Source: Verrucomicrobiota bacterium (GTDB taxonomy: Bacteria; Verrucomicrobiota; Verrucomicrobiia; Chthoniobacterales; UBA6821). Taken from it: a stretch of DNA of 32,000 bases. The notes below the pieces were generated by a model, which was given only the letters and a program-made list of their open reading frames with translations, ran no database searches and had not been told where the DNA came from. Of the stretch, positions 1 to 31,140 are shown piece by piece (within the stretch, counting starts at the first letter, position 1; each line of letters opens with the position of its first letter). Made by a program: the position numbers and the translations under genes. The stretch lies in the NCBI GenBank assembly GCA_008932965.1, contig WBXG01000011.1, positions 1 to 32,000 of the forward strand, given 5' to 3'.

Positions 1-213
1 ATACTGCGTCAGTCTCGAATTGCTCCTCGGGCAGTATGAAACATACAGCCGTCGTCGCAATCCATCACCTTCGTTGACTCGCTCGCTCCCGCTCGTCTCG
101 CCCTTTCAGGCCTGTCTAAAGACAGTCTCCACCGCGGTCTCCCGACCGCCGGTGGTGTCTGCATCAGGATTCACGGCGCCTCGCGACGAACCAGTATGAA
201 ATATGCGGGTCAA
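1..213 (+). mobile_element. MITE-like palindromic element, copy A (long variant; left arm cut by window edge)
   Basis: Collinear with copy H (30957-31140), from actgcgt..gtctcgaattg through the apex hairpin ggcagtatg-aaa-catacagcc (30-50) to the right terminus gtatgaaatatgcgggtcaa (194-213). It carries an extra nested module at 73-156. Confidence 0.8.
73..156 (+). repeat. Nested GC-rich hairpin module inside copy A (second copy at 7043-7135)
   Basis: 73-110 (38 nt) and 126-156 (31 nt) are identical to 7043-7080 and 7105-7135. The module is absent from the otherwise collinear copy H. It contains two hairpins: ctgtc-taaa-gacag (112-125), and ccaccgcggtc-tccc-gaccgccggtgg (129-155; 11 bp with one bulge). 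Confidence 0.8.
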
Positions 214-269
214 TAGTATCTGTTCAATGATATTGCAAGAGTCTCTTATCAAGGTATCATTGCAAATTA

Positions 270-1634
270 ATGATTGTGTCTCAAAAAAGCTTATCCTTCT
301 TTGCCCGTTCTTATCGAAAAACAGTTGCTCACTACCTCAATCTCATCATTCCCAAAGAAGCCTCTCTCCTTGAAATAGGATGTGGAACTGGTTTTTTACT
401 CAACATGCTTCATGGAAGTAAAAAAATCGGGGTCGAGTCTAGTGAAAAAGCGATGAGTGGTGCCATTGCTCAAAACACCAGTTGTGATTTTTTCGTAGGG
501 GATGGAGAAAATTTCATTCCACCCATCTCACCTGACTATGTCGTGCTCTCTGACATGCTCCATCACGAAGAGGATGTTCAGGCTGTGTTAGAAAAAATTC
601 GTTCCTATGCAACCCCTTCCACGCGACTTGTCATCAATTGTTACAATACGCTTTGGCGTCCAGTACTTTCTTTAGCAACATTTTTTGGCCTGCGTGTTCC
701 AGAAGCCCCTGCCAATTGGCTTTCACGGCATGATCTAGAAAATCTTCTGGAGTTAGCATCATGGGAGATCATTCGAAGCGAAGCACGTATTCTTTGCCCT
801 ATCGATATTCCCTTGATTACTTCCTTTCTCAATCGCTATGTAGCTCCGCTTCTTCCGTGGTGTTGTCTTGCTCTTATTTTTATTGCACGTCCACGGCCCT
901 CATCCTCTGGGAATTCTAGAAGTGTCTCCATTATTATCCCTGCACGAAATGAATCAGGAAATATTGCTGCGGCTCTCGCACGCACTCCAAAGATGGGCTC
1001 CTGGATGGAATTTATTTTCGTGGAGGGTCATTCGACAGATGATACTTGGGAGGCCATTCAAAAAATCCAGAAAGATTATCCAGAAATGTGTATAAAAATG
1101 ATGCAGCAGTCAGGCCGGGGAAAAGGAGATGCTGTGCGTGCCGGTTATGCTATGGCAGAAGGGGAGATCTTAATGATCTTGGATGCTGATTTAACAACCC
1201 CTCCGGAGGACCTTCCGAAATTTTATCATGCTATTGCAAGTGGTCATTGTGAATTTGCCAATGGGAGTCGCCTTGTGTACCCCATGGAGGAGAAAGCAAT
1301 GCAATTCTTGAATCTCTGTGCGAACAAATTCTTTGGGATCGCTTTTTCATGGCTCCTAGGACAGCAAGTCAAAGATACCCTTTGTGGCACTAAAGTCCTC
1401 ACCCGAGAGAATTATTTAAAAATTGCAGCCAATAGAAATTATTTTGGAAATTTTGATCCCTTTGGTGACTTTGATTTGCTCTTTGGGGCTAGCAAACTCA
1501 ATCTCAAAATTCGTGATATTCCAGTCCGTTATCGAGAAAGAACCTATGGGTCAACTAACATTAGCCGTTGGAGCCATGGAGTATTGCTATTCAAAATGCT
1601 TGCCTTTGCTGCAAGAAAATTGAAATTCGTTTAA
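270..1634 (+). CDS. Bifunctional class I SAM-dependent methyltransferase / family 2 glycosyltransferase (DPM1-like polyprenyl-phosphate sugar synthase type)
   Basis: 454-aa ORF with an ATG start. The N-terminus has the SAM-binding motif LLEIGCGTGFLLNML. The C-terminal half has GT2 hallmarks: VSIIIPARNESGNI, ILDADLTTPPEDL and a YGSTNISRW tail. Confidence 0.85.
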   Translation: MIVSQKSLSFFARSYRKTVAHYLNLIIPKEASLLEIGCGTGFLLNMLHGSKKIGVESSEKAMSGAIAQNTSCDFFVGDGENFIPPISPDYVVLSDMLHHEEDVQAVLEKIRSYATPSTRLVINCYNTLWRPVLSLATFFGLRVPEAPANWLSRHDLENLLELASWEIIRSEARILCPIDIPLITSFLNRYVAPLLPWCCLALIFIARPRPSSSGNSRSVSIIIPARNESGNIAAALARTPKMGSWMEFIFVEGHSTDDTWEAIQKIQKDYPEMCIKMMQQSGRGKGDAVRAGYAMAEGEILMILDADLTTPPEDLPKFYHAIASGHCEFANGSRLVYPMEEKAMQFLNLCANKFFGIAFSWLLGQQVKDTLCGTKVLTRENYLKIAANRNYFGNFDPFGDFDLLFGASKLNLKIRDIPVRYRERTYGSTNISRWSHGVLLFKMLAFAARKLKFV

Positions 1635-1648
1635 CCCGGATATTTCAT
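1631..1648 (+). repeat. Solo left-TIR relic of the MITE-like family
   Basis: ttaacccggatatttcat is 18/18 identical to the reverse complement of 9098-9115 (terminus of copy C). Its TTAA contains the TAA stop (1632-1634) of the upstream CDS. No matching right TIR lies downstream. Confidence 0.7.
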
Positions 1649-1653
1649 TTCTT

Positions 1654-3378
1654 GTGAGTAAAGTGTTCTCTATATTTATTTTTTCCATTTTGACTGTTAC
1701 AGCGGTTTTTTGGCCCCTTTATTTTGCAGATCATTTTTTTCTCTTCCTCTGGCCCTCGATGCTCTGGGCTCTTGCTATTGGGTTTGCGAGTTCTTATCAA
1801 TGTTGGCGAGCTCCTCTGTTTACTTTTTTCTTGGCTTTATTGCCTATTGTGGCAGGAGCCCTTTATTTTGGAATGGCTCATGCTTCCGATGATTCCTTTC
1901 TACTTGCAGGAGTGATTCCCTGGAGTGATGCCGCCATGCATTTTCGCCAGGCAGCACAAATGGCTGTTTATGGAATCACACAAACAGGAATGAACGGGCG
2001 TTTTCTTTACCCTGCCTATTTTTCTTCACTCCTAACAATCTGTCATTACAATCTACTGATGGCAGAAACCCTCTGTGGATGCCTTTTTGCAGCGGGACTA
2101 GTTGTTGCCTTACGTGAGACAGCACGTGTCATTGGAGTTTCAGGAGCAAGCGTCGTTGCGCTTGTCTGTTGGCTTTTTTTTCGCGAACGCTGTGCGGGTC
2201 TTATCATGACCGAAAATCTCGGGATAATGTGTGGGGTGCTTTCTTTAGCTGCCTTTCTAAGAGGGCTCCATGGGAAACATTTTTACTTAGTAATAGTGGG
2301 AATTTTCATGCTCTCCTTGGGCCTCTGTGCACGACCTGGAGCTTTAGTTGTTTTGCCACTCCTCATTGCTTTTTCTGGATGGCTCGGATGGCAAGGAGGA
2401 ATCTCAAAAAAATGGGGCCGACTGATTCAATCTCTTTTAGCAATGGTTCTTGCACTAATCGTAGTGCTCCTTGCTTTTCATTGTAACAGAATCCTTGCTG
2501 GTTCCCTCTACGAAGGGAAAGTCATTACTAATCAGAATTTTTCCTTTACCTTGAACGGTTTGCTCACTGGGGGGAAATGGTCTGATTGTCTGGGTTGGTC
2601 CCATTGGGATTCCAAATTAGTGATGCGTGAAAATTTAAGACTGATTCAAGAACAACCCCAACTCCTTTTTCTTGGAGCTCTACGCGCTTATAAAGAAGCT
2701 CTTTCCCATCGTACTTTATTTCAATTCCACCAGGAATCACGCCTTGCGACATTTCTGTTGATCATGGCATTTATTGGTTTGGTGGCTCTCTGGAAAAGAG
2801 AACAACTTCGACCTTACGCACTTTGGTTGACCTTGATAACAGTTGGAATCCTTCTCTCCATTCCTTTTGCTCCCCCTTGGGATGCTGCAGAGAGGCCTTT
2901 TGCAGCAACAGTCCCATTCCAAGGCCTCCTTGCAGGTGTTGGATTTTTCGCACTTGCACACCGTTTTTTTGTTTTTGATAGGAGTTTGCCTCTCCCTCCC
3001 TCAACGATGCCTCGTAGTGATCTTGGTATACTCCTTCTTCTAGTATCACTCGTTTTCTTTCTCACGGTTCCATGGCCTCTGATCCATCAAAAAAATCTTT
3101 TTAACAAGGAAGGAACAACCTCATCGATGGCATTATATCCTGGTTCTTTTGTACTAGTAACTCCGGAAAACCGTTTTGAGTTAGAGAGTCGTATGATTCC
3201 TTTCCTACGTCATTATCCAAGTGAAGGTGAATTTCTAATGCATCTTCCATCCCATGTTTTCCTAGGGATTGATTGGAGTAATAAAAATTTTGATCGCTCT
3301 ATTTTTCTCAATAGTGTAGGAGAGACAGTTCCTTTTCGGGGTTGGAATGTAGATCAGCGATTACTTCCTAAAAAATAG
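1654..3378 (+). CDS. Polytopic membrane protein, possibly a GT-C / ArnT-PMT-like glycosyltransferase
   Basis: 574-aa ORF with a GTG start. The N-terminal two-thirds contain many hydrophobic helices, followed by a soluble C-terminal domain. It lies 20 nt downstream of a polyprenyl-P-sugar-synthase-like GT2. The family assignment rests on topology and context only. Confidence 0.6.
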   Translation: MSKVFSIFIFSILTVTAVFWPLYFADHFFLFLWPSMLWALAIGFASSYQCWRAPLFTFFLALLPIVAGALYFGMAHASDDSFLLAGVIPWSDAAMHFRQAAQMAVYGITQTGMNGRFLYPAYFSSLLTICHYNLLMAETLCGCLFAAGLVVALRETARVIGVSGASVVALVCWLFFRERCAGLIMTENLGIMCGVLSLAAFLRGLHGKHFYLVIVGIFMLSLGLCARPGALVVLPLLIAFSGWLGWQGGISKKWGRLIQSLLAMVLALIVVLLAFHCNRILAGSLYEGKVITNQNFSFTLNGLLTGGKWSDCLGWSHWDSKLVMRENLRLIQEQPQLLFLGALRAYKEALSHRTLFQFHQESRLATFLLIMAFIGLVALWKREQLRPYALWLTLITVGILLSIPFAPPWDAAERPFAATVPFQGLLAGVGFFALAHRFFVFDRSLPLPPSTMPRSDLGILLLLVSLVFFLTVPWPLIHQKNLFNKEGTTSSMALYPGSFVLVTPENRFELESRMIPFLRHYPSEGEFLMHLPSHVFLGIDWSNKNFDRSIFLNSVGETVPFRGWNVDQRLLPKK

Positions 3379-3394
3379 GGAACGCTTTCCTAGT

Positions 3395-4411
3395 ATGAAT
3401 CCAAAAATAATTCTTGTCACTGGAGGTGCTGGTTACATCGGTTCGCATACCTGTGTGGCCTTGGCTCAGGCTGGCTACAGGCCGCTGATCTTGGACAACT
3501 TCAGCAATAGCAAGACCTCTGTAATCGATCGATTAGCAACACTCATGGGAGATCCCCCTCTTTGCGTGGAGGGCGATATTCGTGACGCTGCGTTAATTAA
3601 GAAAATCTTTCACGATTATTGCTGTGAAAGTGTGATTCATTTTGCTGGCCTAAAAGCTGTTGGAGAGTCTGTGAAGCAACCGCTTCAATACTACGACGTG
3701 AATGTAGCAGGATCCCTCACTCTGTTTGCAGTAATGAAAGATTTCGGTATAAAGCATCTTATTTTTTCCTCCTCAGCTGCTGTTTATGGAGAGGAAAAAG
3801 AGCCTCCACTCCATGAGGAATCACTCCTCCATCCAGTAAATCCCTATGGTCGTTCGAAACTAATGGTAGAGGAAATATTGGAAGATCTTTATCACATGGA
3901 TTCCCACTCAAGCATCGTACGCCTTCGCTATTTTAATCCTATTGGAGCTCATCCTAGTGGACTCATCGGAGAAACTCCCAGTGGAGTCCCCAATAACCTC
4001 ATGCCCTACATCACCCAAGTTGCTGTGGGGATAAGAAAAAAACTTTCCATTTTTGGGAATGATTATCCAACTGTTGATGGAACAGCCGTGCGTGATTACA
4101 TTCATGTGATGGACTTAGCGGAGGGACATGTGGCCGCGCTTCAAAAAACAGAACGCTCTTCGGGGCTCTCCACGTTGAATTTAGGAACCGGTCGAGGTTC
4201 CTCCGTGCTTGAGCTAGTAGAGGCTTTTGAGGCTGCCACCGGAAAAAACATTCCTTATGAAATCGTAGCACGCCGTGCAGGTGATGTCGCTGCTTGCTGG
4301 GCCGACCCTAGTGCTGCTCAAAAGCAATTAGGATGGGGGGCAACACGCGATCTAAGAACCATGTGTGCTGATAGTTGGAATTGGCAACTGCGGGCTAGTT
4401 TTATTATTTAA
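3395..4411 (+). CDS. galE: UDP-glucose 4-epimerase
   Basis: 338 aa. It has the NAD-binding motif VTGGAGYIGSH, the SDR catalytic YGRSK, and full-length resemblance to GalE. Confidence 0.92.
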   Translation: MNPKIILVTGGAGYIGSHTCVALAQAGYRPLILDNFSNSKTSVIDRLATLMGDPPLCVEGDIRDAALIKKIFHDYCCESVIHFAGLKAVGESVKQPLQYYDVNVAGSLTLFAVMKDFGIKHLIFSSSAAVYGEEKEPPLHEESLLHPVNPYGRSKLMVEEILEDLYHMDSHSSIVRLRYFNPIGAHPSGLIGETPSGVPNNLMPYITQVAVGIRKKLSIFGNDYPTVDGTAVRDYIHVMDLAEGHVAALQKTERSSGLSTLNLGTGRGSSVLELVEAFEAATGKNIPYEIVARRAGDVAACWADPSAAQKQLGWGATRDLRTMCADSWNWQLRASFII

Positions 4412-6833
4412 TGGAACTGGCATTAGAATGGATCTTGGGCAATGCAATATATTTGGGTCTCCAGGTGGGAGTTTTCATAGAACCATCCCAGACATATTCA
4501 AATAATTTACTCACTGGAAAGAGAACTAGTCCAGGAAGTCCTTTAACATTAAGACGCATTTGCATGTTAATATGATCCTCAAGGTAAAAGATATCTCCAT
4601 AGCCAATCATGCTAAATTCGGCACTTTGAATAGAAAGGTTTTTGGTGTGAATAATGCCACGTTGCACTGTAAAATCTGCGGTTGCCTGGCGCGCTGCTTG
4701 ATATCCTAAGCCTGGGTAAATATCGTTCATCAGTGTTGAGAGAGGACCAAAAATTGGCATTGCCAATACATTCCCATTTTTAATAAATAAATGCCCTTGG
4801 CCCTTCATGGCATAGTCATCCTTAGCTATTGTAGAAAAGTGGTAATTACCACTTAACCTTCCTTCAGATGTGTCGTGGTCAAAATAAAGTTTAGTGATGC
4901 TTTTAAAATCAATACTATCAAGATCGACATCAGCAGAGTAATGACCGTTGTCAGGTGCAATGGAGGCCGCAACTTGAAGTTTTACATTGCCGCCGAAAAG
5001 GGAGGCATCAGGAAGATAAATCAGAAGATCTTGTTTTTTAATCTGAATGGTACCATCTACTTTCGTGAATGTGAGGTTGCGCTTTATTAAAGTATAATCA
5101 AGGCCTTGAGGGGAATGAATTCGTAAATTCAAATCATTTTTTAAAGGATCCTTCAGGCCTAGTTTTCCAGTAACTTGAATTTCTGGAGGAGCGTGAAAGC
5201 GATAATCCTTTAGTGATTCTGCAATGCGAGGATCAATCCACATGAGAACAGTAATAGGATCGACTGCAGATTGAATTTTAGGAAAAAGAATTTCTTGATT
5301 TTTAAAATCATAGACACACTCACCTGATGCCATTTTGCCACCAATTTTCGCTAAGATATTTTGAAAATCTAAAGCCCCCTCTTTCATTTGAAATGTAGAC
5401 ACAAGAGAATCAATCCAAGCCCCTCGCACCGAAGAAGAACCTAGGTCCAGTCTTCCTGAACCTGAAAAAGCAAGAGGGTCAAGCTTGGGAGCACTTCCTT
5501 CGAAAGTAACTTGAAGGGGATCTTTAAAATTGACCAAGGAGAGAAAATTTTGCAAAGAACCTTTTGCAGCAGGGAGAAGAGATTGTGGGAGGAGCGATAG
5601 ATGAATTCTAAGACGATTATCTTGGGGGGCTATCATCAGATCGGCTTCTAAGGAGCCTGGCTCCCCAGTGAGTTGCAAATCACGAACAAGAAAACGTCCT
5701 CCTTGGTAAGTGCATCCAAAAGAAAAATGATCCATAGAAATACCCCTATAGATAAAACGTCCTGATGCTACATGAGCTTCCCCTTGAAGGACCGGAACCC
5801 CATTTTTCCAATGTGTAGCAAAGGCTCCTTCAAGATGAGGTGGGTCAATCCAAACAGACTCAGAAAGAGGATTTTTTGATAGAACAAGAGCAGAGAGAGA
5901 CCCAATGTCACACATCCCTGAAAAATTCAAAGCAGCTTGACACTCTTTAAAGTCGGCATTTCCGGAAGCATGAAGCTCTCCTTTGCTATCATCTATGAAT
6001 AGCTGGTTCAGCTTTAACAAGCCATTGGCGAATTCTAAATCTGCCCTGATTGCTGTGAAATTCCATGGACCATAATGACACGGTCCTGCAATGAAAAGTG
6101 CATGATCAATTCGTAGTAATCCAGTGTTAGTTAAATCACCACTTGCTTCAATATCGAGGGTCGGGGCTCCTCCCTCCCATTCCATGCGTTGTAAGAGTTG
6201 CTGGACACGTTCAATAGTTTGAGCAATTTTTCCTGGCTCCTGAGAGGAGACTGCTTGTGGAGCAAATGTTTTGGGATTAAGAAAATTACCGCTTGCATGA
6301 ACATGGATGCCACAGAGATCAAAATGAGCATTACTTAGGGTCAACTGTCCTGGCGGAGAAACAATTTTGGCATCGACATGATCCAGTCGCAAACGAGGCT
6401 CTTCCTTATTTCCAAGAGGAACATCAATAGAGGTGCGATTGAGCTGAAGTAAATCAATTTGAATGCTCCCTCGTGAAAGTGCTGATAAATTGGGGAAAAT
6501 CGTTATTCGTTTGGCATGCACTAGAAGACGATGCGAAGGGTTTTTTTCTAATAGCTCAAGGCCCTCGGCAATGAGTCCATCGCTGAGACTAAAAAGAAGA
6601 CGATGAATTTTTACTTCATAAAATTGACCAGCAAGTGCATTTTCAACACGGTGACGAACGCCATTTCCTAAGCCATAAAAACGGGCTGTTAAAAGAAAAA
6701 GAGGGGTGCCTGCTAAAATCAAGATAACCACAAGCTGAGCAAAGCGCGCGATAACATGACGCAGCATGGCTTCAGTATGATCGAGTATTAAGCTGAGGTT
6801 TTTTTTATTTTTAATCATCTTAACTATGCTCAT
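4404..6833 (-). CDS. AsmA/TamB-like large envelope protein (N-terminal membrane anchor followed by a long beta-rich periplasmic region)
   Basis: 809-aa ORF with a single N-terminal TM segment (LVVILILAGTPLFLLTA). The rest is long and repetitive beta-strand-like sequence, typical of AsmA-family proteins. Its 3' end overlaps galE by 8 nt (convergent). Confidence 0.65.
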   Translation of the reverse strand: MSIVKMIKNKKNLSLILDHTEAMLRHVIARFAQLVVILILAGTPLFLLTARFYGLGNGVRHRVENALAGQFYEVKIHRLLFSLSDGLIAEGLELLEKNPSHRLLVHAKRITIFPNLSALSRGSIQIDLLQLNRTSIDVPLGNKEEPRLRLDHVDAKIVSPPGQLTLSNAHFDLCGIHVHASGNFLNPKTFAPQAVSSQEPGKIAQTIERVQQLLQRMEWEGGAPTLDIEASGDLTNTGLLRIDHALFIAGPCHYGPWNFTAIRADLEFANGLLKLNQLFIDDSKGELHASGNADFKECQAALNFSGMCDIGSLSALVLSKNPLSESVWIDPPHLEGAFATHWKNGVPVLQGEAHVASGRFIYRGISMDHFSFGCTYQGGRFLVRDLQLTGEPGSLEADLMIAPQDNRLRIHLSLLPQSLLPAAKGSLQNFLSLVNFKDPLQVTFEGSAPKLDPLAFSGSGRLDLGSSSVRGAWIDSLVSTFQMKEGALDFQNILAKIGGKMASGECVYDFKNQEILFPKIQSAVDPITVLMWIDPRIAESLKDYRFHAPPEIQVTGKLGLKDPLKNDLNLRIHSPQGLDYTLIKRNLTFTKVDGTIQIKKQDLLIYLPDASLFGGNVKLQVAASIAPDNGHYSADVDLDSIDFKSITKLYFDHDTSEGRLSGNYHFSTIAKDDYAMKGQGHLFIKNGNVLAMPIFGPLSTLMNDIYPGLGYQAARQATADFTVQRGIIHTKNLSIQSAEFSMIGYGDIFYLEDHINMQMRLNVKGLPGLVLFPVSKLFEYVWDGSMKTPTWRPKYIALPKIHSNASSIK

Positions 6834-6910: not shown

Positions 6911-7175
6911 TTAGACCAAATATTTCCTATCAATCACCTGCAGAAGCTAGGAAGCTAGGAAGCCAGGTCGATGCTGCATTAGACTCACATTGTGGCTTGA
7001 GCAGTATGTATGGCTACAGCCGTCTTCAAAATATGTGTCTGCGTTGACTCGCTCGCTCCCGCTCGTCTCGCCCTTTCAGGGCTGCCCCCTTAAAGCCAGG
7101 GCAGTCTCCACCGCGGTCTCCCGACCGCCGGTGGTTGCCCCATCAGTCTTGGCGGCCTCCTCTACCACGATCCAT
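6911..7175 (+). mobile_element. MITE-like palindromic element, copy B (long variant; right TIR missing)
   Basis: The left end ttagaccaaatatttcctatcaatcac aligns with the copy C (reverse complement) and F left arms. The apex is gagcagtatg..ctacagcc. The right arm ccccatcagtcttggcggcctcctc aligns with F and E. It contains the nested module 7043-7135 and an 8-bp tandem gaagctag x2.75 (6943-6964). Similarity fades at or through the stop codon of the TPM gene. Confidence 0.75.
7043..7135 (+). repeat. Nested GC-rich hairpin module inside copy B
   Basis: The flanks are identical to 73-110 and 126-156. The central hairpin is ctgccc-(11 nt)-gggcag (7082-7104), where copy A has ctgtc-taaa-gacag. Confidence 0.8.
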
Positions 7176-7905
7176 CAGCACCACCACCACCGCTCTCACC
7201 ACCTCCCCCAGAAAAGCCGCCCCAATCATTACCACCACCAGTGCCTCCTCCAAGACCACCCCCTCCGATAAACCAGCCTCCACCGCCCCCATTTTTACCT
7301 CCAGAAGATCGCTTTTGAAAAAAAGAAATAATGATGATGAGTAAAAAAAACCCGATTGGAGAAAAGAGAAGCCTTTGCCAAGAAACGATTTGTTTCTTTT
7401 TTAAGGGGTTCTCGTTTTTATATTCCCCTGCTGTTGCTTTCATAATGGCATGGATGCCATCTAGGAGAGCTTGATTAGGGTTTCCTTGTTGAAAAAGAGG
7501 AGTCATTACCTCATCGATAATCTGCTTGCAAAGGGCATCTGGCAGTGCTCCTTCTAATCCATAACCAGTCTGAATATGAATTTGATGCTCCTTCGCAAAG
7601 ATGAGAAGTAAGACACCATTGCTATTTTTTTTCGTTCCCAAATGCCAGGTGCTATAAAGTTGTTGTGCATAATCATCCAATGAAGTCCTGCTCGAAAATG
7701 TAGGTTCAATCACTACGACAATTTGATTCGAAGTCTGTTGATCAAAGCGTTCTAGTTGAGTATTGAGCTCCATAGCTACTTGAGGAGAGACCATACTGGC
7801 CTCATCATTAAAATAGTTTTTGGGTGATGGGGGTAATCCCTCTGCTCCTTGAAGAGGAATAAAACTCCATATTAGAAGAGCAAGAAAAAGGGTCAAGCGG
7901 GCCAT
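7162..7905 (-). CDS. TPM-domain (YgcG-like) protein with signal peptide, TM helix and Gly-rich tail
   Basis: 247 aa. It has an N-terminal signal-like segment and TPM-domain sequence (NQIVVVI..., GVLLLIFAKEHQIHIQTGYGLEG). A TM helix follows, and the Gly-rich C-terminus ends in GGGADGSW, which is typical of this family. Confidence 0.85.
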   Translation of the reverse strand: MARLTLFLALLIWSFIPLQGAEGLPPSPKNYFNDEASMVSPQVAMELNTQLERFDQQTSNQIVVVIEPTFSSRTSLDDYAQQLYSTWHLGTKKNSNGVLLLIFAKEHQIHIQTGYGLEGALPDALCKQIIDEVMTPLFQQGNPNQALLDGIHAIMKATAGEYKNENPLKKKQIVSWQRLLFSPIGFFLLIIIISFFQKRSSGGKNGGGGGWFIGGGGLGGGTGGGNDWGGFSGGGGESGGGGADGSW

Positions 7906-8931: not shown

Positions 8932-9115
8932 TTAATCCAGAAACTTCATACTAATCGTAGCGAGAGGGCCGCGAAGCTAAGGTGGGCAAGGCGAGACCTG
9001 AATTCTGACGACAGCTGTGTAAGTATGCACTGCCCGAGGAAGGCTTCGAGATCAACGTAGTATCCAGTTGGCTTCCTACCTACCGTAAGTGATTGGCATG
9101 AAATATCCGGGTTAA
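8932..9115 (-). mobile_element. MITE-like palindromic element, copy C (184 bp, inverted relative to the other copies)
   Basis: The ends are ttaatccagaaacttcatac and gcatgaaatatccgggttaa. The reverse complement aligns along its whole length with copies B and F (ttaacccggatatttcatgccaatcac..ggaagcc..gttgatctcgaagcc..gggcagtgcata..acgattagtatgaa). Confidence 0.85.
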
Positions 9116-14177: not shown

Positions 14178-14360
14178 TTCGCTCGCCTATTTCATACTGA
14201 TTCTGAAACACCTTGCTAGGGCCTGATGTATACTCTTTCTGGATCGAATGCTCCTCGAGCAGTTTGCCTCACACAGTGGTTGTCAGGCTTCATCGCTCGC
14301 TTTGTCCTATCAGCATTGGCCTTCTCATCGTCACAATCAGTGCGATATATCAGGGGATAG
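14178..14360 (+). mobile_element. MITE-like palindromic element, copy D (183 bp, more diverged)
   Basis: The left end is ttcgctcgcctatttcatac. The core ggatcgaatgctcctcgagcag..cacacagtggttgtc aligns with copy A. The right arm atcagcattggccttctcatcgtcacaatcagtgcgatatatcaggggatag aligns with F and G1. Confidence 0.7.
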
Positions 14361-14427: not shown

Positions 14428-14463
14428 TTCGCCTATTTCATCCAACGAGCCGAAGCCTCTTGC
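14428..14463 (+). repeat. Partial element (left-TIR-like fragment)
   Basis: ttcgcctatttcatcc repeats the copy D left terminus. The following cgaagcctcttgc resembles the cgaagccttcctcggg core of copy C. Confidence 0.4.
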
Positions 14464-14523
14464 ATTATCACCAAAGACTTTTAAAATAATATCTCTATTC
14501 TAGCTTGAATTACACTAAGTACT

Positions 14524-19649: not shown

Positions 19650-20074
19650 AAAAATGATTGACTAGCCTTTTTTCGTTTTAGCATCATAGAAAAGATGTAC
19701 AAACCAAGTATCCAAGAACATTTATCGCTGATATCACTGTCACTACCTTTTACAGTTATATCTTGCATGGTACTGTTCTTCTTTCATCCCTGTAAATTAA
19801 GTCACGAGCGAATGTGATTGCGTTCGACGGAACGCCATTAAAAAGAGGGATTTTATCCATTACTGGCTTCGTATTTAAACGAATCTATTAATCCCTACCG
19901 TTCAAAATTCATCTGATTAAGTCAATCAATCGTGTTGATCGTTAGTGAAATACTAATTTTCTTCCTTTCCTTTCTCACTTGTTAGCAACGGAATGCTTGC
20001 TACCACTGACCAGGAGTCATGGTGCATTTTCATATCACAAAAAAACAATACTAATCCCTTTCAATATTAACAAA

Positions 20075-21946
20075 ATGTCTGCTTTAACTCAAAATTCATC
20101 CCCTAAATTCAATCTCCAGGTAGAAAGAAAAAGGCCTGTATGCTCTTCATGGCTAGCGCACAGATCGCTTCTTTTCATAGCATCCTTATGGAGTATAGGG
20201 AGCGCCTCTGCTATTTTTATGATACTATTTTCTCAATCTCTCCATGCGCAGGAAATAGATCCAAAAACCGATCCTATTGACACTGAGCTTTCAGGGCCAC
20301 TTGCCGTAATTCCAGAAATGATCTCTGTGGAAGATGCTGGAAATCTCGCTGATCCTATTACTGGATTGGGCGCGGTACAAGAAGCATTCCACATCGGAAA
20401 ATACCCTGTAACTAATTTACAATGGACAACTTTTCTCAATGCTGTGCACGTTGTTGAGCAAAATCCTGAAGATCCCCGCAATCTTTATCATGAGGAGATG
20501 TTTCAGAAAAATATTGGATCTGCTCCCTTATCTAAGTTAACCGATGTTATAAGAACCAGAATTGATGCAACCAATTTTCTAGGTCACAAGATCACGGTTT
20601 TTTTCCCAAAAGACTGGGGAACTCCCTTAGGACACTATTTTGGTTCGCTTCCTGTGACAGGAATAAGCCTAGATGACTGTAAGCGCTATCTCAATTGGTT
20701 ACATCATGGGGCTCCAGATTTTTTAACCTTATGTCGAAAAGACCCATCGTTAGATCCCTTTACTTTAAGTGAAAAGCTCTTAGCTATAACAGAAACTGGA
20801 GCCTATGATTTTACAAATGGCAAAAATGGAGAGCTTATGGAAGGAGCGCGCTATTTTCTCCCTAATTTAAATCAGTGGTACAAGGCTGCTTACCATTACG
20901 GTGGAACAACAGATGCTACCTACTGGTCTTATCCTACTCAAAGCAATAAATTACCAACTCAAAGCAATAAATTACCAACTCAAACAATCATCCTTGAACT
21001 CTTCAAAAATCCTTCTAGTGCTAAAACAGGAGCTAATTTTGCACAAGTTTTTTATAATTATAAACGATATTATATAGATGGATGTTATGACATGGAGCAT
21101 TTATTTAGTGATGAAACCATGCCTTCAAAAGAAAATGAATATTATCTTGCAACACCTGTCGGTTTTTTCACAGATTCACCCAGCTCTTATGGAACCTATG
21201 ATCAAGGAGGAAATGTAAGAGAATGGACGAGCGATTCTGTAATAACGTTGCAAGGAGAAGAAATGATTGCTCCAGGAGGATCATTTGAAGAGTCCAGTGA
21301 TCAATTATTAAGCACTAATGCAAACAAAAAATCTTTTCCCCCGTCCTGTAGAATTAAAACTATCGGTTTAAGAGTATGCTCATTAGCGACTGTTGGTAAT
21401 CTTAACAAAGATCCAATTTTGTCAGATGCTGCCTCGAACTCCCTTAACAGTTCCTTAATTCTTCAGTCATTTACAAATGTAGCCATTGCACAAACGACAG
21501 CTTATGGTCTTGAAGCTGCTTTAGCAGTTGGTATTAAATATGTTAATACGGGAAGGATAATGACTCTGAGTGAAATAGTGCGCCCTTTTACCTATCAGCG
21601 AAATATTGTAAATGGTATCTTAAGTGTTGTTCTTGTCATGGGTGAAACAGGTCGAGCAACAGTGGCTCCAATAAAAAAAGAGGACTTATGGAATATAGGA
21701 TTCGTTGTTGCCTCTACCATAGCTACGATGCTCCTGACTGAAGGTTCTGCTTTCTTTGTTGAAGCCGCCGTAGGAGAAGTGCTCAACCTGCTCAAAAACT
21801 CTAATTTGATCACAATGACAGTTCAAAATAGCGTTACTGAATTAGCATGGCCCAGATTGATTACCAACATGTGGTACATTGGCCTGAATACTTATCTGAC
21901 AACAAAATCAGATTTAAAATATTTTGAAGAACAACAACTCAATTAA
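20075..21946 (+). CDS. FGE/SUMF1-domain protein with N-terminal anchor and C-terminal hydrophobic region
   Basis: FGE-sulfatase-family motifs are present (FHIGKYPVTNLQWTTFLNAV, YGTYDQGGNVREWTSD, APGGSF). There is an N-terminal hydrophobic segment (LLFIASLWSIGSASAIFMILF). The C-terminal roughly 170 aa contain several hydrophobic segments. I prefer the ATG at 20075 over the TTG at 19979. Confidence 0.75.
   Translation: MSALTQNSSPKFNLQVERKRPVCSSWLAHRSLLFIASLWSIGSASAIFMILFSQSLHAQEIDPKTDPIDTELSGPLAVIPEMISVEDAGNLADPITGLGAVQEAFHIGKYPVTNLQWTTFLNAVHVVEQNPEDPRNLYHEEMFQKNIGSAPLSKLTDVIRTRIDATNFLGHKITVFFPKDWGTPLGHYFGSLPVTGISLDDCKRYLNWLHHGAPDFLTLCRKDPSLDPFTLSEKLLAITETGAYDFTNGKNGELMEGARYFLPNLNQWYKAAYHYGGTTDATYWSYPTQSNKLPTQSNKLPTQTIILELFKNPSSAKTGANFAQVFYNYKRYYIDGCYDMEHLFSDETMPSKENEYYLATPVGFFTDSPSSYGTYDQGGNVREWTSDSVITLQGEEMIAPGGSFEESSDQLLSTNANKKSFPPSCRIKTIGLRVCSLATVGNLNKDPILSDAASNSLNSSLILQSFTNVAIAQTTAYGLEAALAVGIKYVNTGRIMTLSEIVRPFTYQRNIVNGILSVVLVMGETGRATVAPIKKEDLWNIGFVVASTIATMLLTEGSAFFVEAAVGEVLNLLKNSNLITMTVQNSVTELAWPRLITNMWYIGLNTYLTTKSDLKYFEEQQLN
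20936..20984 (+). repeat. Perfect 21-bp tandem repeat (2.3 units) inside the FGE-domain CDS
   Basis: actcaaagcaataaattacca occurs at 20936-20956 and 20957-20977, followed by actcaaa. It encodes PTQSNKL-PTQSNKL-PTQ. Confidence 0.95.
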
Positions 21947-22127
21947 CCCGTATGTTTCATCCCGATCTACTGCGTAGATCGGGAAGTCATATGGATGCTG
22001 CGTTAGACTTGCATTTTGATTTGGGCAGTATGTACAACATACAGCCCTGCATCAAAATGCTCGCCTGCCTTACCCCATCAGCCTTCGAGGCCTCCTCGTT
22101 ACGATCATTATGAAATATGCGAGCTAG
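21943..22127 (+). mobile_element. MITE-like palindromic element, copy F (185 bp), filling the gap between two convergent genes
   Basis: The ends are ttaacccgtatgtttcat and ttatgaaatatgcgagctag. The central imperfect palindrome is at 22011-22060 (gcattttgat..ggcagtatg-tacaa-catacagcc..atcaaaatgc). The TAA stop of the + strand gene (21944-21946) and the TAG stop of the - strand gene (22124-22126) lie in the element tips. Confidence 0.88.
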
Positions 22128-22795
22128 CGTGCAAGAATCTGGTACTCCTCTTGCTTTTTTACAATGCTTTTTTCAGGTAGGATCCCATGCCATGAGACCA
22201 TAGGATAGATTAAGCTCTCCCTTCCAATAATTGATCCTGGGCTCAATACAGCATTGCATCCAATTTCAACATAATCACCAAGAATAGCACCAAATTTTTT
22301 GAGGCCAGTGGAAATTTTGAGGTTCTCTATTTTGATGATAATTTCCTGCCGATCTAATCGGACATTAGAAAGAATAACACCTGCCCCAAGATGAGCACGG
22401 TAGCCTAAAATAGAATCGCCAACATAGTTAAAATGGGGGACCTGGACTTCATCAAAGAGGAGTGAATTTTTTAATTCACACGAGTTTCCAATAACCGAAT
22501 TATTTCCAACAATAACATTTTCTCGAATATAACACCCTTTACGCAACTGACATCCTTCCCCAATCCAGGCAGGACCTAGAATTACAGCCCCCTCCTCAAT
22601 AATGGTATTTTTCCCAATAAAGACATTTTTTCCAATATAAGAATTTCCATTCTTAATTCCATAATTTGCTGGAGTGAGGTAATCAGCAAGATAAGAAGAA
22701 ATATTGGAAAGAATCTCCCAGACTCGCGAATTTCTGTTGATCAAAATCTGATGATCTGTATGGCGAAGATCAAGGTAAGCATTAGGATGAAACAT
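22124..22795 (-). CDS. Left-handed beta-helix (hexapeptide-repeat) transferase, GlmU/G1P-nucleotidyltransferase C-terminal-domain-like
   Basis: It carries repeated hexapeptide motifs (IGKNVFIGKNTIIEEGAVILGPAWIGEGCQL..., VGDSILGYRAHLGAGVILSN). I prefer the ATG at 22795; the track start at 22900 would overlap the upstream GT9 by 50 nt. Confidence 0.75.
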   Translation of the reverse strand: MFHPNAYLDLRHTDHQILINRNSRVWEILSNISSYLADYLTPANYGIKNGNSYIGKNVFIGKNTIIEEGAVILGPAWIGEGCQLRKGCYIRENVIVGNNSVIGNSCELKNSLLFDEVQVPHFNYVGDSILGYRAHLGAGVILSNVRLDRQEIIIKIENLKISTGLKKFGAILGDYVEIGCNAVLSPGSIIGRESLIYPMVSWHGILPEKSIVKKQEEYQILAR

Positions 22796-22850
22796 AGAAT
22801 TTAAAGGTACTGTATGAGGGCTGTTTGTTAGGAAAATAAACGAGATTATT

Positions 22851-23948
22851 TTATTTTTTAAAATGAAGTATCCGCTCCATTGCATCAAAAACTTTTTCAA
22901 AAGATATCTGACTCATCTCACTAAGCTGAGGATCTTTTTGTTTAAGTAGAAGTTCTTTTTCAGGCTTGGCAAGTTCGATGATTTCATGGCCCGGGGTATT
23001 GTCTAGTGGACCATACATACTAGTGGGGCTGCGGTAGTGGAGTAGCGCAAGAGTGGGGCAACCCACTGCAAAACCAAGATGCATCACGCCAGTATCTGTG
23101 CTCACAAGCATGGAAGCCTCCTTGAGGAGTGCGGCTGTCTCCTCTAAGGTTGTTTTTTGAACAAGATTGATGACCCAAGGAGTTGCTTTTTCAATAGCTA
23201 TTCCTACCTCGTAATTGTCATGCCCCCCCGTTAAAATGATCTGATGAGGATATCTCTCCTTAAACCATCTGATGGCGTGAATATAAGATTCTACGGGCCA
23301 GTTTCGCCAGGAGAGTGTTTTACCTCCTCCTGTTTGAAAAATAATAAAAGGTTGTTTTAAAGCAGGGTGGTGTTGGTAGAGAAGTTTTACCTCCTCCTCC
23401 CTTACCTGATAAACCATACCTCGATCGACCTTTGCCCCACCGGCGGCAGTAGCTACTTTCAAGATTTCTTTCACAATATGGGGTTCATCTTTCGTAACCA
23501 CTGGATGTGAGAGAAGGAAGGAAAAACGTTGACAGCGCTCCACAGCGCCGAAAAAAGCATGTCGATTCAAAAGGTATCCTAGTGGAACCGCCTCTTCATT
23601 GACATGCAGGGCAACAACTAGATCTGGTTTACTATTTCGAAAGTGCTGTAAAAGCTTGAATTGAGAAAGAGGCGATTTACTCAGTGGAAGGACTTCATCT
23701 ACGAATGGATGGTGACGTGCTACTGACCCACGTCGATGGTGTGCTGCGACAATGAGTTTGGACTGAGGATACCCCTTTTTTAAACTTTTTATTGCTGCTG
23801 AATCAAAAAGACTATCTCCAATTCCAGTTGTGCTAAAAACTAAAATGAGTTTAGGGTTCTTTGGGAGGGGCCATGGAACTGGTGGGAAGACCAATGCAAG
23901 AAGACGAAAAAAATGCTCATTAAAAAATCGAGTAATCTTGTTCCACAT
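22851..23948 (-). CDS. Family 9 glycosyltransferase (heptosyltransferase-like)
   Basis: 365 aa. GT9 features are ILVFSTTGIGDSLF, a short linker after the HIVKEILK motif, FQTGGGKTLSWRNWP and STDTGVMHLGFAVG. Confidence 0.85.
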   Translation of the reverse strand: MWNKITRFFNEHFFRLLALVFPPVPWPLPKNPKLILVFSTTGIGDSLFDSAAIKSLKKGYPQSKLIVAAHHRRGSVARHHPFVDEVLPLSKSPLSQFKLLQHFRNSKPDLVVALHVNEEAVPLGYLLNRHAFFGAVERCQRFSFLLSHPVVTKDEPHIVKEILKVATAAGGAKVDRGMVYQVREEEVKLLYQHHPALKQPFIIFQTGGGKTLSWRNWPVESYIHAIRWFKERYPHQIILTGGHDNYEVGIAIEKATPWVINLVQKTTLEETAALLKEASMLVSTDTGVMHLGFAVGCPTLALLHYRSPTSMYGPLDNTPGHEIIELAKPEKELLLKQKDPQLSEMSQISFEKVFDAMERILHFKK

Positions 23949-25658: not shown

Positions 25659-25696
25659 AGGGGTTAATGATAAGAACGATGTATGGAAGAAGATGG

Positions 25697-25762
25697 TTTA
25701 ACCCGCATATTTCATACTCATCACGGCCTCCTCGTCACGATCAGTATGAAATATCTGGGCTA
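25697..25762 (+). mobile_element. Minimal (66-bp) member of the MITE-like family, copy G1
   Basis: ttaacccgcatatttcatactcatc..gatcagtatgaaatatctgggctag. The two TIR arms are separated by only about 16 nt, with a 13-bp perfect inverted repeat (atatttcatact/agtatgaaatat). Confidence 0.85.
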
Positions 25763-25909
25763 GTTTTTCAGATTGGATCAGGCTGAGTCAACTGCATCGA
25801 TGTATTGTAGAGCAACTAAAAAATTTATAACCCCTAAAAAGGGAGCTCGTCATAGAATGTTCTTTGCGAGCATAAGGAAGACTTGCTTCTCTCTGGTTTT
25901 ATAGGCATC

Positions 25910-26093
25910 TTAACTCGAATATTTCATACTCAATCCTTGCGGCTTGGGGAAAGCTCATTGTCACTGTGCTGGTCTCGATTGCGAGTGGGGAAGTAGGGCT
26001 CCTGCAGCCCCGCATCACAATCTTTCTCCCTCCTTGTACTAATAAGCTTTGCACGGCGCCTCATGACGCTTCAGTATGAAATGCTCGGATTAA
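25910..26093 (+). mobile_element. MITE-like palindromic element, copy G2 (184 bp)
   Basis: The ends are ttaactcgaatatttcatac and gtatgaaatgctcggattaa. The left arm cggcttggggaaagctcattgtcactgtgctggtctcgattg is collinear with copy H. The right arm cacggcgcctcatgacgcttcagtatgaaat is collinear with copy A. Confidence 0.85.
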
Positions 26094-27208: not shown

Positions 27209-27379
27209 TCTTAGGTGTTGAGTGTAGCAGAGTATAGTGCTCATCATATTAGTGTAACTTTAGACAAATCTTAGTCTTGTGATTTTATTTCAAGAAAAAA
27301 ACTCTGCTTATTGGGGGTCTATTAATTAGGGAGAGCTTGTTGCCGATGACTCTCATTGCTCTTTTATTTTAGAACGATC

Positions 27380-28180: not shown

Positions 28181-28195
28181 AACATCTGGTTTAGA

Positions 28196-28744: not shown

Positions 28745-28750
28745 TCAAGA

Positions 28751-30952
28751 ATGATTGTACAAAGAGAAGAGACAGCTTCCCATCGTCAGATCTTGATTTT
28801 AAGCAGTATTGCTATTGCTGTTTTTGCCATTTTAATACTCAGGCTTTCATATCTTCAGGTCATTCGTGGCAATCAGTACAAAGCAAAAATTAAAGGTAAT
28901 TCTGAATTAACTGTTCGTATTCCTGCAGTGAGAGGAGAAATTTTTGATCGCAATGGAATCCCTCTTGTAGAAAATCGGGCTAGCCTTCAAGTAGATCTCT
29001 ATTTGCCAGATATTGTTAAAGCTTACAAAGAAAATGAAGGAACCGTTCCAGTGATTACCTATCGGGCCTTCGACCATGGAATGCCTATTAATAAGGAAGA
29101 AGCGGACATCGTTCAAATTGTTCAGACATCTGTAATTCCTCGTCTCGAAAAATTAGGCTTAGCCGGGGATTACAACACGCGAAAATTACAGCTTCAATAT
29201 CGTAACAACAAAGAAGTCCCATTTTCATATCGAAAAGATCTCGATTTTGAAACGATGGCACGCTTTTGTGAAAATAGCCTCAATTTACCGGGAGTGAATG
29301 TCACACTAACGCCAGTAAGAAATTATGTTTATGGCGCCCTTGCTGCTCATCTTTTTGGCTACGTGGGATGGCCTACAGAAATTGATCCTAAGGAAGCTAG
29401 TCAGTTTAATTTTTATGAGCCTGATGTGGTGGGTAAAGCACAGATTGAATTGGCTTATGATACCGTGTTACGAGGAACACCTGGTCAACGCATTTTACAG
29501 CGTAATGCTCACGGAGGTATCGAAAAAGAAGAGGAGCAGATCAAGCCCAAGCAGGGGGCTAATGTTTATTTGACCATTGATGCACGGATTCAATATATCG
29601 CAGAGCAAGCATTACGCGTTGTCGGAAGAGGGGCCATCGTGGTGCTCAATCCCAATAATGGAGATGTTTTAGCAATGGCTTCTGTCCCATCCTTTGATCC
29701 CAATAAATTTGTTCCCACGATTTCTAAAAAAGATTGGGAATCCCTTGTTCATGATGAAACAGATCCTTTAACGAACCGTGCTTTGAGTTCTTATGCTCCT
29801 GGTTCTATTTTCAAACTTTGCACTTCCTTGGCTGGCATTCGTGCCGGGATTGGAGATCGCGAATTTACCTGTACTGGAGGGGTCCAGTATGGCGACAAAT
29901 TTATGAAATGCTGGGTCTTAACTGCGAAGCCACCGCTCCCCCCCCATGGAAAGCTTCATCTCAGCGATGCTATAAAAAAATCATGTAATGCCTTTTTTTA
30001 TCAATATGGAAATGCTGCTGGAATTGATCAAATTGACTCTGTGGGAAAAATGCTAGGCCTTGGACAAAAAACAGGCTTACCTCTTAATAACGAAGCACCA
30101 GGAGTCTTGCCAGGACCGGAGTGGTTAGCCGCTAATGCTCCTCAAGAGCGTTGGAGCGCAGGTTACACGGCCAACGTTGCCATTGGTCAAGGTTTTGTAC
30201 TAACAACACCTATACAGATGGGTCTTGTAGGTTCTACAGTAGCCAATGGTGGAATTTACTATCAACCCCGACTTGTAAAAAAAGTAGTCGCTCAAGATGG
30301 GATGATCCTTTCGGAAGAACCTACAAAAATTCGAAGTGATTTAAAAAAGGAGGGAGGTTTCACCGATAATCAAATTCAACAAGTGCGTCTCGGCATGTGG
30401 AAAGTAGTCAACGAAGATGGTGGGACCGCTCGAAAAGCACGCCTGGAAAAGAATATTGTAGCAGGGAAAACGGGAACTGCTCAATTTTGGCGAGGCCGTA
30501 GCAAAGATAATCATACCTGGTTCATAGGATTTGCCCCTTATGAACATCCTAAGTATGTTGTCATAGTGCTTGTACAAGGTGCTAAATCTGGAGGAGCTGT
30601 GGCAGCTCCCCTTGCATCTAAAGTTTTACAAGAAATCTTTGCTATGGAAGCAGGAAAAGAGGTCAAGCTTACCCCGTTAAAGCCTGCTGTTGGAAATTTC
30701 AAGCATATCTCGAGTATTGATTTTTCAAATGCAACACCCTGCTCCTATGGTCCTGATATTGAACCCGGAGATTCTCCAGTAGACGCTTCTCCAAGATCTG
30801 GCTCCTCCTCTCGGGAGAATATGCCAACTCCTGACATCAGCGAAGATGCTGATGCACGAGGTCATGTCAAAAACAAACAACAAAATCAAGGTGGCCTTCA
30901 AAAATTTTTCAATTTTCTGGGGGGAGGCCGATCCGCTGCTCCCAAAAATTAG
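28751..30952 (+). CDS. mrdA: Penicillin-binding protein 2 (elongasome transpeptidase) with a roughly 100-aa low-complexity C-terminal extension
   Basis: 733 aa. It has an N-terminal TM, SxxK (GSIFK), SxN (KSCNAFF) and KTGTA motifs. It lies in operon position after mreBCD. Confidence 0.9.
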   Translation: MIVQREETASHRQILILSSIAIAVFAILILRLSYLQVIRGNQYKAKIKGNSELTVRIPAVRGEIFDRNGIPLVENRASLQVDLYLPDIVKAYKENEGTVPVITYRAFDHGMPINKEEADIVQIVQTSVIPRLEKLGLAGDYNTRKLQLQYRNNKEVPFSYRKDLDFETMARFCENSLNLPGVNVTLTPVRNYVYGALAAHLFGYVGWPTEIDPKEASQFNFYEPDVVGKAQIELAYDTVLRGTPGQRILQRNAHGGIEKEEEQIKPKQGANVYLTIDARIQYIAEQALRVVGRGAIVVLNPNNGDVLAMASVPSFDPNKFVPTISKKDWESLVHDETDPLTNRALSSYAPGSIFKLCTSLAGIRAGIGDREFTCTGGVQYGDKFMKCWVLTAKPPLPPHGKLHLSDAIKKSCNAFFYQYGNAAGIDQIDSVGKMLGLGQKTGLPLNNEAPGVLPGPEWLAANAPQERWSAGYTANVAIGQGFVLTTPIQMGLVGSTVANGGIYYQPRLVKKVVAQDGMILSEEPTKIRSDLKKEGGFTDNQIQQVRLGMWKVVNEDGGTARKARLEKNIVAGKTGTAQFWRGRSKDNHTWFIGFAPYEHPKYVVIVLVQGAKSGGAVAAPLASKVLQEIFAMEAGKEVKLTPLKPAVGNFKHISSIDFSNATPCSYGPDIEPGDSPVDASPRSGSSSRENMPTPDISEDADARGHVKNKQQNQGGLQKFFNFLGGGRSAAPKN

Positions 30953-30956
30953 AGCG

Positions 30957-31140
30957 TTAACCCGCATATTTCATACCGATCTATTACGGCTTGTGGAAAG
31001 CTCATGATTACTGCGTTGGTCTCGAATTGTGATTTGGGCGGTATGTACTCATACAGCGGTCGTCGCAATCCATCACCTTCCATGTCATCATCAGAATTCG
31101 CTGCGCTTCGTGACGAACCAGTATGAAATAGGCAGGCTAA
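30957..31140 (+). mobile_element. MITE-like palindromic element, copy H (184 bp)
   Basis: The ends are ttaacccgcatatttcatac and gtatgaaataggcaggctaa. The core actgcgttggtctcgaattg and the apex gcggtatg-tact-catacagc, followed by cgtcgcaatccatcaccttc, are nearly identical to copy A (1-72). It starts 4 nt after the PBP2 stop codon. Confidence 0.9.

Follow-up and report, generated by a model that had tools for sequence, protein, structure and literature searches.

A family of small inverted-repeat elements with IS1380-type ends and 4-bp target duplications in a Chthoniobacterales genome

The stretch of DNA analysed here (hereafter the window: positions 1 to 32,000 of contig WBXG01000011.1, assembly GCA_008932965.1, from an uncultured freshwater bacterium of the Chthoniobacterales, Verrucomicrobiota) carries numerous copies of a repeat of about 184 bp. 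We concluded that these repeats are, very probably, transposable elements of the miniature inverted-repeat type (MITEs), namely non-coding, deletion-size derivatives of an insertion sequence (IS) of the IS1380 family. The repeats have the traits by which MITEs are recognised: they are small and devoid of a transposase gene, they are bounded by terminal inverted repeats (TIRs) and flanked by a duplication of fixed length, their copies are dispersed, and some sites are occupied in one genome and empty in another. A preliminary description, made by a model from the letters of the sequence, had proposed such a MITE-like family; the unit length, the duplication, the further copies in other genomes, an empty site and the existence of ISs with the same ends all support it.

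We built a search profile from the five copies of 183-185 bp and ran it with nhmmer over the 32-kb window. The search returned 10 matches, with E-values from 1e-41 to 1e-51 for the five full copies; it recovered every element that had been listed and no other substantial match, which confirms the nine copies of the preliminary description (one of them, copy G1, being now placed at 25698-25763). The terminal 20-mer is found 8 times in the window with at most 3 mismatches, while 0 occurrences are expected from shuffled sequences. The pairwise identity among the copies is 69-81% over most of their length. It had been rightly seen that they occupy about 1.65 kb (5% of the window) and are richer in GC than their surroundings (0.44-0.58 versus 0.426 for the window). 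Of the roughly 13 intergenic gaps longer than 100 bp, 7 contain a copy; copy E is no intergenic copy and lies in frame inside the open reading frame (ORF) 17292-18515. The two sequence subfamilies first distinguished were an oversimplification: the copies are really a mosaic of 3-5 alternative internal modules.

The ends of the element could be defined to the base. The modal length, in the 62 copies for which both flanks are available, is 184 bp, so that a defined unit length, as first proposed, does exist. The flanking 4-mers are TTAA, CTAG, CTAA or TTAG, that is YTAR, most often TTAA (in 30 of the 62 left flanks), and the left flanks of the copies are rich in G at positions -3 to -1. The left and the right 4-mers are identical in 34 of the 62 copies, where 2000 shuffles gave 17 ± 3 and never more than 26; when they are not palindromic (CTAA..CTAA, GTAA..GTAA) they form direct repeats and never inverted ones. 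As the flanking 4-mers behave as direct repeats, the element proper is the 176-bp sequence CCCG...CGGG, which reaches 184 bp with both 4-mers. This means that the outer TTAA or CTAG, originally counted as part of the shared termini, is a 4-bp target-site duplication at YTAR, lying outside the inverted repeat, and that the TIR begins at CCCG. The TIRs extend over about 17-22 nt (CCCGNATATTTCATACYGATC): the terminus CCCGNATATTTCATAC is found again as its complement at the opposite end, and alignment columns 5-20 and 186-201 pair in 87% of cells.

An empty site, which the preliminary description had suggested looking for together with target duplications, was found in the gene pheT. In a metagenome-assembled genome (MAG) from Kiruna (locus L087) the site is filled and reads ...gggcgggagag TTAA[176 bp]TTAA tagaaaaacc, while in a relative 91% identical to it (L141) it is empty and reads ...gggcgggagag CTAA tagaaaaatc. 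The two PheT proteins are 849 and 789 residues long, a difference of exactly 60 residues. This pair shows a base-precise insertion with duplication of YTAA. It also bears on our first hypothesis, that of MITEs of the IS630/Tc1-mariner type, which insert at the TA of NTAN and duplicate TA only, as is known of RUP and of numerous MITEs in cyanobacteria. Here the 4-mer's central TA is indeed nearly invariant, and CTAG is the classic IS630 target; however, the outer positions of the 4-mer match as direct repeats, including CTAA..CTAA and GTAA..GTAA, the empty pheT has one CTAA where the filled one has two TTAA, and the full-length elements with these termini encode IS1380 rather than IS630 transposases. 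We rejected this hypothesis, which now appears very improbable, on three grounds: the statistics of the 4-mers, the empty site and the family of the transposase.

Full-length ISs with matching ends, the search for which had also been suggested, do exist, and all those found encode a transposase of the IS1380 family. They carry the MITE terminus CCCGNATATTTCATA and the YTAR duplication. In the Pedosphaerales locus L039, an element of 1807 bp with the MITE termini and CTAG..CTAG flanks encodes a truncated DDE_Tnp_1_4 transposase (Pfam PF13701, 2.7e-97). In a Pseudomonadales MAG (L017 and L029), an IS of 1568 bp with CTAA..CTAA flanks encodes a transposase of 440 amino acids (aa). The NCBIfam equivalog model for IS1380 (NF033539, cutoff 180 bits) gives 416 bits for the Pseudomonadales protein and 244 bits for that of L039. 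The latter has thousands of close relatives, of about 480-490 aa, on contigs of about 2 kb; those examined (L130-L138) are ISs of about 1.75 kb, encoding transposases of 479-487 aa, with termini CCCGGATATTTCATAG/C and flanks TTAG..TTAG or CTAA..CTAA. Among curated elements, ISPa33 and ISMaq4 have transposases 50-54% identical and termini CCCGGATTTCTCATGA similar to that of the MITE at about 12 of 16 positions; they are flanked by CTAA..CTAA and CTAG..CTAG. All these termini (ISPa33, ISMaq4, L039, L130-L138) begin with CCCGGA, as in the MITE, and ISs and MITEs alike have a 4-bp YTAR direct repeat (CTAA, CTAG, TTAG) and form head-to-tail arrays with a single 4-mer. A catalogued subgroup of IS1380 thus has the YTAR duplication and the CCCGGA ends as general features. 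ISfinder describes the IS1380 family by a target duplication of 4-5 bp and ends starting with CC, and the MITE, with 4 bp and CCCG...CGGG, fits these traits. Unlike these ISs, the MITE is only 176 bp long and has no transposase, and no such IS was found in the sampled genomes that carry the MITE.

The absence of a transposase ORF from the window, noted at the outset, was confirmed: none was found by Pfam, nor by tblastn with four transposases (best E 0.033). The idea that mobility would have to be supplied in trans fits both this absence and the existence of the IS1380-family ISs with matching ends. We propose that an IS1380-family DDE transposase encoded elsewhere would bind both termini and insert the element at YTAR (TTAA, CTAG or CTAA), duplicating those 4 bp. 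That such an enzyme acts on these copies, and any present mobility of a copy, are inferences. The elements would also recall piggyBac. This eukaryotic transposon and its MITEs (MER85, MER75) use TTAA, duplicate 4 bp and end in CCC...GGG; the present MITE has a TTAA-type 4-bp duplication and CCCG...CGGG ends, although, unlike in piggyBac, its target is relaxed to YTAR, with TTAA in the proportion of left flanks given above. IS1380 transposases form the prokaryotic outgroup in piggyBac phylogenies (PMC10813416); by our own sequence and fold comparisons a link between the IS1380 and piggyBac transposases could not be shown. The pathway of IS1380 transposition is said to be unknown (PMC9330008). 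On the reading proposed here, IS1380 would be a new parent family for bacterial MITEs, and TTAA-type targeting together with CCC ends would be found widely in a bacterial relative of piggyBac that is already catalogued.

The family extends beyond the window. Contigs identical to the window occur in the freshwater metagenome JGI 3300027969, and the Chthoniobacterales MAG Tobar2m-G38 is 88% identical to it over 4.2 kb. An exact-match scan with TARCCCGNATATTTCATAC, over one genome per species, gave more than 102 loci, mostly in Verrucomicrobiota, some in Planctomycetota and Omnitrophota, and several in a single Pseudomonadales MAG. About 130 related copies were found in low-GC Chthoniobacterales MAGs; the sampled MAG loci were chosen for containing a match, so the copy densities are biased upward: 56 profile matches in 172 kb for Kiruna_bin-02438 and 43 in 121 kb for Tobar2m-G38, with fewer in three more MAGs and single ones in two high-GC MAGs. 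Judged by its interior, the 184-bp family is almost wholly limited to low-GC (41-45%) genomes of the Chthoniobacterales type. Among viral contigs, 12 terminus matches were at chance level and none had a MITE body, and copy F was matched by nothing in a plasmid collection.

The copies stand at differing loci in at least 6 MAGs and their flanks are mutually unrelated. This contradicts a local segmental duplication, a possibility that the preliminary description had named as one that would refute its reading; the precise insertion in pheT speaks against it as well. For REP/BIME-like palindromes dispersed by a transposase of the RAYT (Y1) type one could invoke the dense intergenic occurrence and the partial palindromy. 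The REPs, however, are 20-40 bp long, have no TIRs or target duplications and bear GTAG or CGTC heads (PMC3733652), whereas the present element has 176 bp, TIRs and a 4-bp duplication. Together, REP-like palindromes and immobile segmental duplications are scarcely credible as an explanation.

Other genomes of the Planctomycetota-Verrucomicrobiota-Chlamydiota (PVC) group contain MITEs of 58-68, about 131, 172 and 209 bp that share the termini but have unrelated interiors. These were seen at L021, L024, L033, L066, L073 and L088 (all from the AS27 MAG), at L019, L047, L072 and L107, and further at L038 6969-7140 and L080 6361-6569, with CCCGNATATTTCATA termini and YTAR flanks throughout; in several of the 67-68 bp AS27 copies YTAR is absent on one side. 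A single IS1380 clade would appear to have given rise to many independent MITE lineages. Tandem MITEs, head-to-tail or head-to-head, share a single 4-bp junction at L045 160-524, L058 5378-5689, L042 4168-4526 and L096 6426-6725, and L134 2903-6415 is a head-to-tail dimer of an IS with one common CTAA. These arrays, and the G-rich positions -3 to -1 of the left flanks, suggest that insertion prefers the ...GGG-YTAR boundary of a copy already present.

The insertion of an element together with one 4-bp duplication adds a net 180 bp, that is 60 codons. We examined the reading frames of 52 copies and found that frame 0, in which the YTA of the target is read as leucine, is devoid of stop codons in 19 of them in one orientation and in 18 in the other. 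For the other frames the number is 0-1 of 52, and about 7% would be expected by chance. The predicted peptide is L[TA]RIFHTD...YEI[SC]GL; peptides of the two orientations read, for example, LTRIFHTD...QYEISGL and LARIFHTDRDEEAAKADGV...YEISGL. Counting a copy as intragenic when the frame is open for at least 180 nt on either side, we found 14 intragenic matches among 105 testable profile matches, corresponding to 12 elements (about 12% of copies), with Pfam domains on both sides. The insert lies between the tRNA_bind and B3_4 domains in PheT, between the HD and ACT domains in GlnD, and between the transglycosylase and transpeptidase domains in a protein of the type of penicillin-binding protein (PBP) 1A; two glycosyltransferases of the PMT/TMEM260 type and a TamB-like protein are further hosts.

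In the window, the host gene of copy E (17742-17874, plus strand, internally deleted) is at 17292-18515 on the plus strand and codes for a lipopolysaccharide heptosyltransferase III (GT9) of 407 aa. The assignment comes from Pfam PF01075, matched in two stretches at 1.7e-41, and the names of its homologs agree. Copy E adds a net 129 bp, or 43 codons, in frame at CTAG (codons T-L-A) and without a stop, in a variable interdomain linker. The 43-aa insert is absent from the homologs (345-374 aa), including all the more distant heptosyltransferases III and the syntenic distant relatives L126 and L127, while strains 99% identical to the window retain it. Together with the pheT pair, this is our evidence for presence and absence of copies. 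In copy H the frame 0 of the reverse orientation is still without a stop over 61 codons. A peptide-profile search of the window translated in six frames gave no further hidden intragenic copies.

A second property of the target concerns the ends of genes. Every YTAR holds a stop codon on both strands, and the duplication regenerates it; insertions at gene ends are therefore harmless. At 12 of 124 element ends the duplication coincides with the stop of an ORF that has 80 codons or more, as compared to 2.65% of all YTAR sites. Copy F (21943-22127, plus strand, full length) fills all the space between two convergent genes, both of which take their stops from its 4-mers: TAA at 21944-21946 and TAG at 22124-22126 on the minus strand, the neighbours being the ORFs 19979-21946(+) and 22124-22900(-). 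The two genes probably shared one YTAR as their overlap before copy F inserted. Copies can persist in intergenic gaps as well as in the linkers of genes because the stops are regenerated and the leucine frame stays open. In the mechanism that we propose, insertion at a gene end would regenerate the stop codon and do no harm, and insertion into a leucine-coding YTA would add a peptide of 60 residues and leave the gene unbroken.

It is tempting to go one step further and to suppose that the element is built for tolerance inside genes, its net length of 60 codons and its open frames in both orientations having been selected at the level of the element. We hold this only as a tentative idea, the contrary being likelier. 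If it were true, the element could settle in the linkers of essential genes (among them pheT, glnD and PBP genes) of free-living bacteria with compact genomes. It would also be the first phenomenon like that of the Rickettsia palindromic elements (RPE) for which the target and the duplication are defined and a candidate transposase is at hand. If, moreover, the IS1380 enzyme acted like that of piggyBac, excision would be precise and the protein insertions would be reversible.

RPEs often stand in frame in unrelated housekeeping genes (review PMC10969869). Like them, the present MITE is short, partly palindromic, found in frame in unrelated housekeeping genes and adds tens of residues to the product, with the gene left intact. 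The comparison with RPE made in the preliminary description was thus more apt than could then be seen, the frame being kept and copies often being intragenic, copy E included, whereas those with Correia and ERIC elements amount to a generic likeness. The differences must be noted too: the host of RPE is an obligate intracellular alphaproteobacterium and that of the MITE a free-living freshwater Verrucomicrobium; the MITE has clear TIRs, a defined 4-bp duplication and an IS family with matching ends; and most copies of RPE are intragenic, against the small share given above. We would therefore speak, by analogy, of a functional resemblance, and claim no membership by sequence. The mode of spread of RPE has stayed obscure. 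The present family would offer a mechanistically defined case (a terminus, a 4-bp YTAR target and a candidate IS1380 transposase) of the in-frame repeats known mainly from RPE, and the entry of such repeats into essential genes and their persistence there can now be tested in a free-living lineage.

With the Correia/NEMIS elements of Neisseria, ERIC of enterobacteria and RUP of pneumococcus, the MITE shares a small size, TIRs or palindromic structure, a high copy number, a mostly intergenic location and the lack of coding capacity. Correia elements are 104-156 bp long and RUP 127 bp, and both duplicate TA. The MITE differs from them by its 176 bp, by a duplication of 4 bp at YTAR where they duplicate the TA dinucleotide, by the fact that no promoter-like or terminator-like signals were found in it, and by its phylum. 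The GC content had suggested the QMITEs of Coxiella burnetii. QMITE1 has 300-400 bp and variable direct repeats of 2-4 bp, overlaps ORFs and encodes peptides, and QMITE2 has 150-190 bp and variable direct repeats of 7-11 bp (PMC5896051). The size range of QMITE2 covers that of the MITE, and the peptide coding of QMITE1 resembles it likewise; but the direct repeats and the host differ, no link of QMITEs to IS1380 is reported, and we rejected this identity, since neither the size nor the direct repeats of the QMITEs agree with those seen here. A 2024 review of prokaryotic MITEs (PMC10969869) makes no mention of IS1380, Verrucomicrobia or TTAA, and full-text literature searches found no description of this family.

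In the window the copies are old and partly decayed, and they are fixed in the species. All are kept in the 99%-identical strains, without any insertion polymorphism, and the divergence between these strains is 0.64% in the copies, 0.56% in ORFs and 0.53% in other spacers. The intergenic site equivalent to that of copy D is also occupied in L127 and in Kiruna L075, genomes only about 70% identical, hence this insertion is ancient. In L126 and L127 there is no copy downstream of the sulfatase-like gene that adjoins copy F, the downstream neighbour gene being a different one there. At the site of copy A, the Tobar ortholog (L036) has two 184-bp copies versus one copy of the 235-bp type in the window. 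Intergenic comparisons of Kiruna with Tobar gave cases of presence versus absence, in flanks too diverged for a base-precise empty site. A metagenome scan for orthologous loci, anchored on the MlaD-like gene, gave 175 pattern matches and no relatives.

We then considered folding, as the elements had been described as imperfect palindromes. Whole elements fold better than their shuffles (mean z-score -5.4), but the palindromy is weak in the copies of the window, four of the five full ones having z-scores from -0.3 to -2.6 and copy F alone -6.2. Since the interiors deprived of the termini reach a mean z of only -1.8, the signal comes mostly from the termini. This matters for the reading in which the copies are, or have become, functional RNA or DNA hairpins (acting in stability, termination or regulation) kept by selection, as proposed for ERIC, Correia and REP. 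In its favour are the z-score of whole elements, the ancient retention of copy D, and a whole-length hairpin in which 81.5% of cells are paired, against 29-43% in slid controls, and in which 201 cells show a change in both partners (for example GAAGTCT/AGACTTC versus CATTTTGAT/ATCAAAATG), the shuffles giving 97 ± 8 and the slid controls 41-75. This hairpin model was, however, derived from single-sequence minimum free energy folds of the same sequences, which inflates the pairing score. RNAalifold, on 52 copies, recovered nothing beyond the termini and a short stem, with a weak consensus of -3.2 kcal/mol. Rfam has nothing in the window at the gathering threshold or at E<=1, so that no known non-coding RNA family, which had been named as a result that would speak against a new repeat family, is hit. 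The copies occur in both orientations, also inside genes, and their divergence between strains is like that of ORFs and spacers. Scans for promoters and terminators revealed no enrichment, and the intergenic copies contained no sites, the weak consensus matches being restricted to the inside of copy E; a tRNA scan of the window was negative, and we found no evidence for a current function of its copies. The functional reading, which is compatible with a transposon origin and concerns a secondary exaptation only, appears improbable to us.

Several points weigh against the derivation from IS1380 as we have put it, and we gather them here. In about 380 kb of low-GC Chthoniobacterales loci, tblastn found no IS1380 transposase (this covers the sampled DNA only). 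IS copies are often lost from MAG assemblies, and this absence is weak evidence for that reason. In every IS examined, the similarity with the MITE ends about 17-20 nt into the terminus. The MITEs would be derivatives of an IS1380-family IS, and to derive them from one particular IS goes beyond what the shared termini tell. The covariation of the arms exceeds the controls, neutral decay alone being insufficient to explain it, and a structural constraint is possible; the covariation may come from selection on the hairpin, from symmetric transposase sites or from the mode of origin of the subfamilies. Lastly, the frame-preserving copies could reflect survivorship and not a trait evolved by the element.

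We can now go through the remaining copies of the window, all of which (like the relics and copies E and F) are on the plus strand except copy C. Copy A (1-213) is a variant of about 235 bp truncated on its left by the start of the window; nhmmer matches it at 1-77 and 156-211, its right terminus reads ...GTATGAAATATGCGGG, with TCAA as the 4-mer next to it, and it is 93-97% identical to copies of the Tobar2m-G38 MAG. In copy B (6911-7175) the left terminus is degenerate, a short stretch is duplicated internally, and the right terminus is absent or decayed. Copy C (8932-9115, minus strand) is full length, 184 bp including both TTAA 4-mers, and stands between the divergent genes for LemA and UDP-glucose dehydrogenase. 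Copy D (14178-14360) is the most decayed of the full-length copies. Copy G1 (25698-25763) is a 58-bp deletion derivative with two 4-mers, TTAA on the left and CTAG on the right, in which the left terminus is fused to the right end of about 40 nt. Copy G2 (25910-26093, full length, TTAA...TTAA) lies upstream of mreB, and copy H (30957-31140, full length, TTAA...CTAA) between convergent genes. As to the two relics first listed, that at 1631-1648 consists of a left terminus alone, TTAA CCCGGATATTTCAT (E 0.09), whose TAA is the stop codon of the ORF 270-1634, and the sequence differs at this point in the ortholog L036. The other, at 14428-14463, is a terminus-like fragment adjoining a conserved non-coding block; its match is very weak (E about 4) and it is doubtful as a genuine relic.

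A second repeat, of about 84-95 bp, rich in GC and with the hairpin CCACCGCGGTC-TCCC-GACCGCCGGTGG, is nested in copy A (73-156, plus strand, about 84 bp) and in copy B (7042-7136). The module of copy A is probably a second small mobile element. The same module was seen at L054 5755-5846, L058 5299-5382, L087 6256-6351, L089 187-279 and L108 7050-7133. Its position in the MITEs is mostly around model position 130 (in two subfamilies) and twice around 85, and once it is found without a surrounding MITE; no TIR or target duplication is visible. In L060 the module is in frame with its host MITE in the predicted translation. This repeat may be a small mobile element in its own right, with a site that it prefers.

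For annotation, these repeats call for caution: they break up MAG assemblies, add 43-88 residues to predicted proteins and provide the stops of genes, and annotation of Chthoniobacterales should mask or flag them. One gene end of the window is a case in point. The last few codons and the stop (7162-7175) of the ORF 7162-7905(-), a TPM-domain protein, fall within the decayed right part of copy B, and the C-terminus of this protein is thus derived from the repeat.

Finally we must note some features of the window and its relatives that lie outside the repeats. The non-coding block next to the doubtful relic (about 14457-14490, CTCTTGCATTATCACCAAAGACTTTTAAAATA) is upstream of a rhomboid-family gene and is conserved in L127 and L075 though the coding regions are only about 70% identical; it may serve as a regulatory site or belong to a leader. 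Three long ORFs, 1654-3378, 4404-6833 and 10580-12436 (574, 809 and 618 aa), have no Pfam match above threshold and sit in a polysaccharide/lipopolysaccharide gene neighbourhood. Between the rhomboid and glycosyltransferase genes, L127 (3763-5091) and L075, which are 92-97% identical, differ by a segment of 1.7 kb that contains a gene for a sugar transporter of the major facilitator superfamily.

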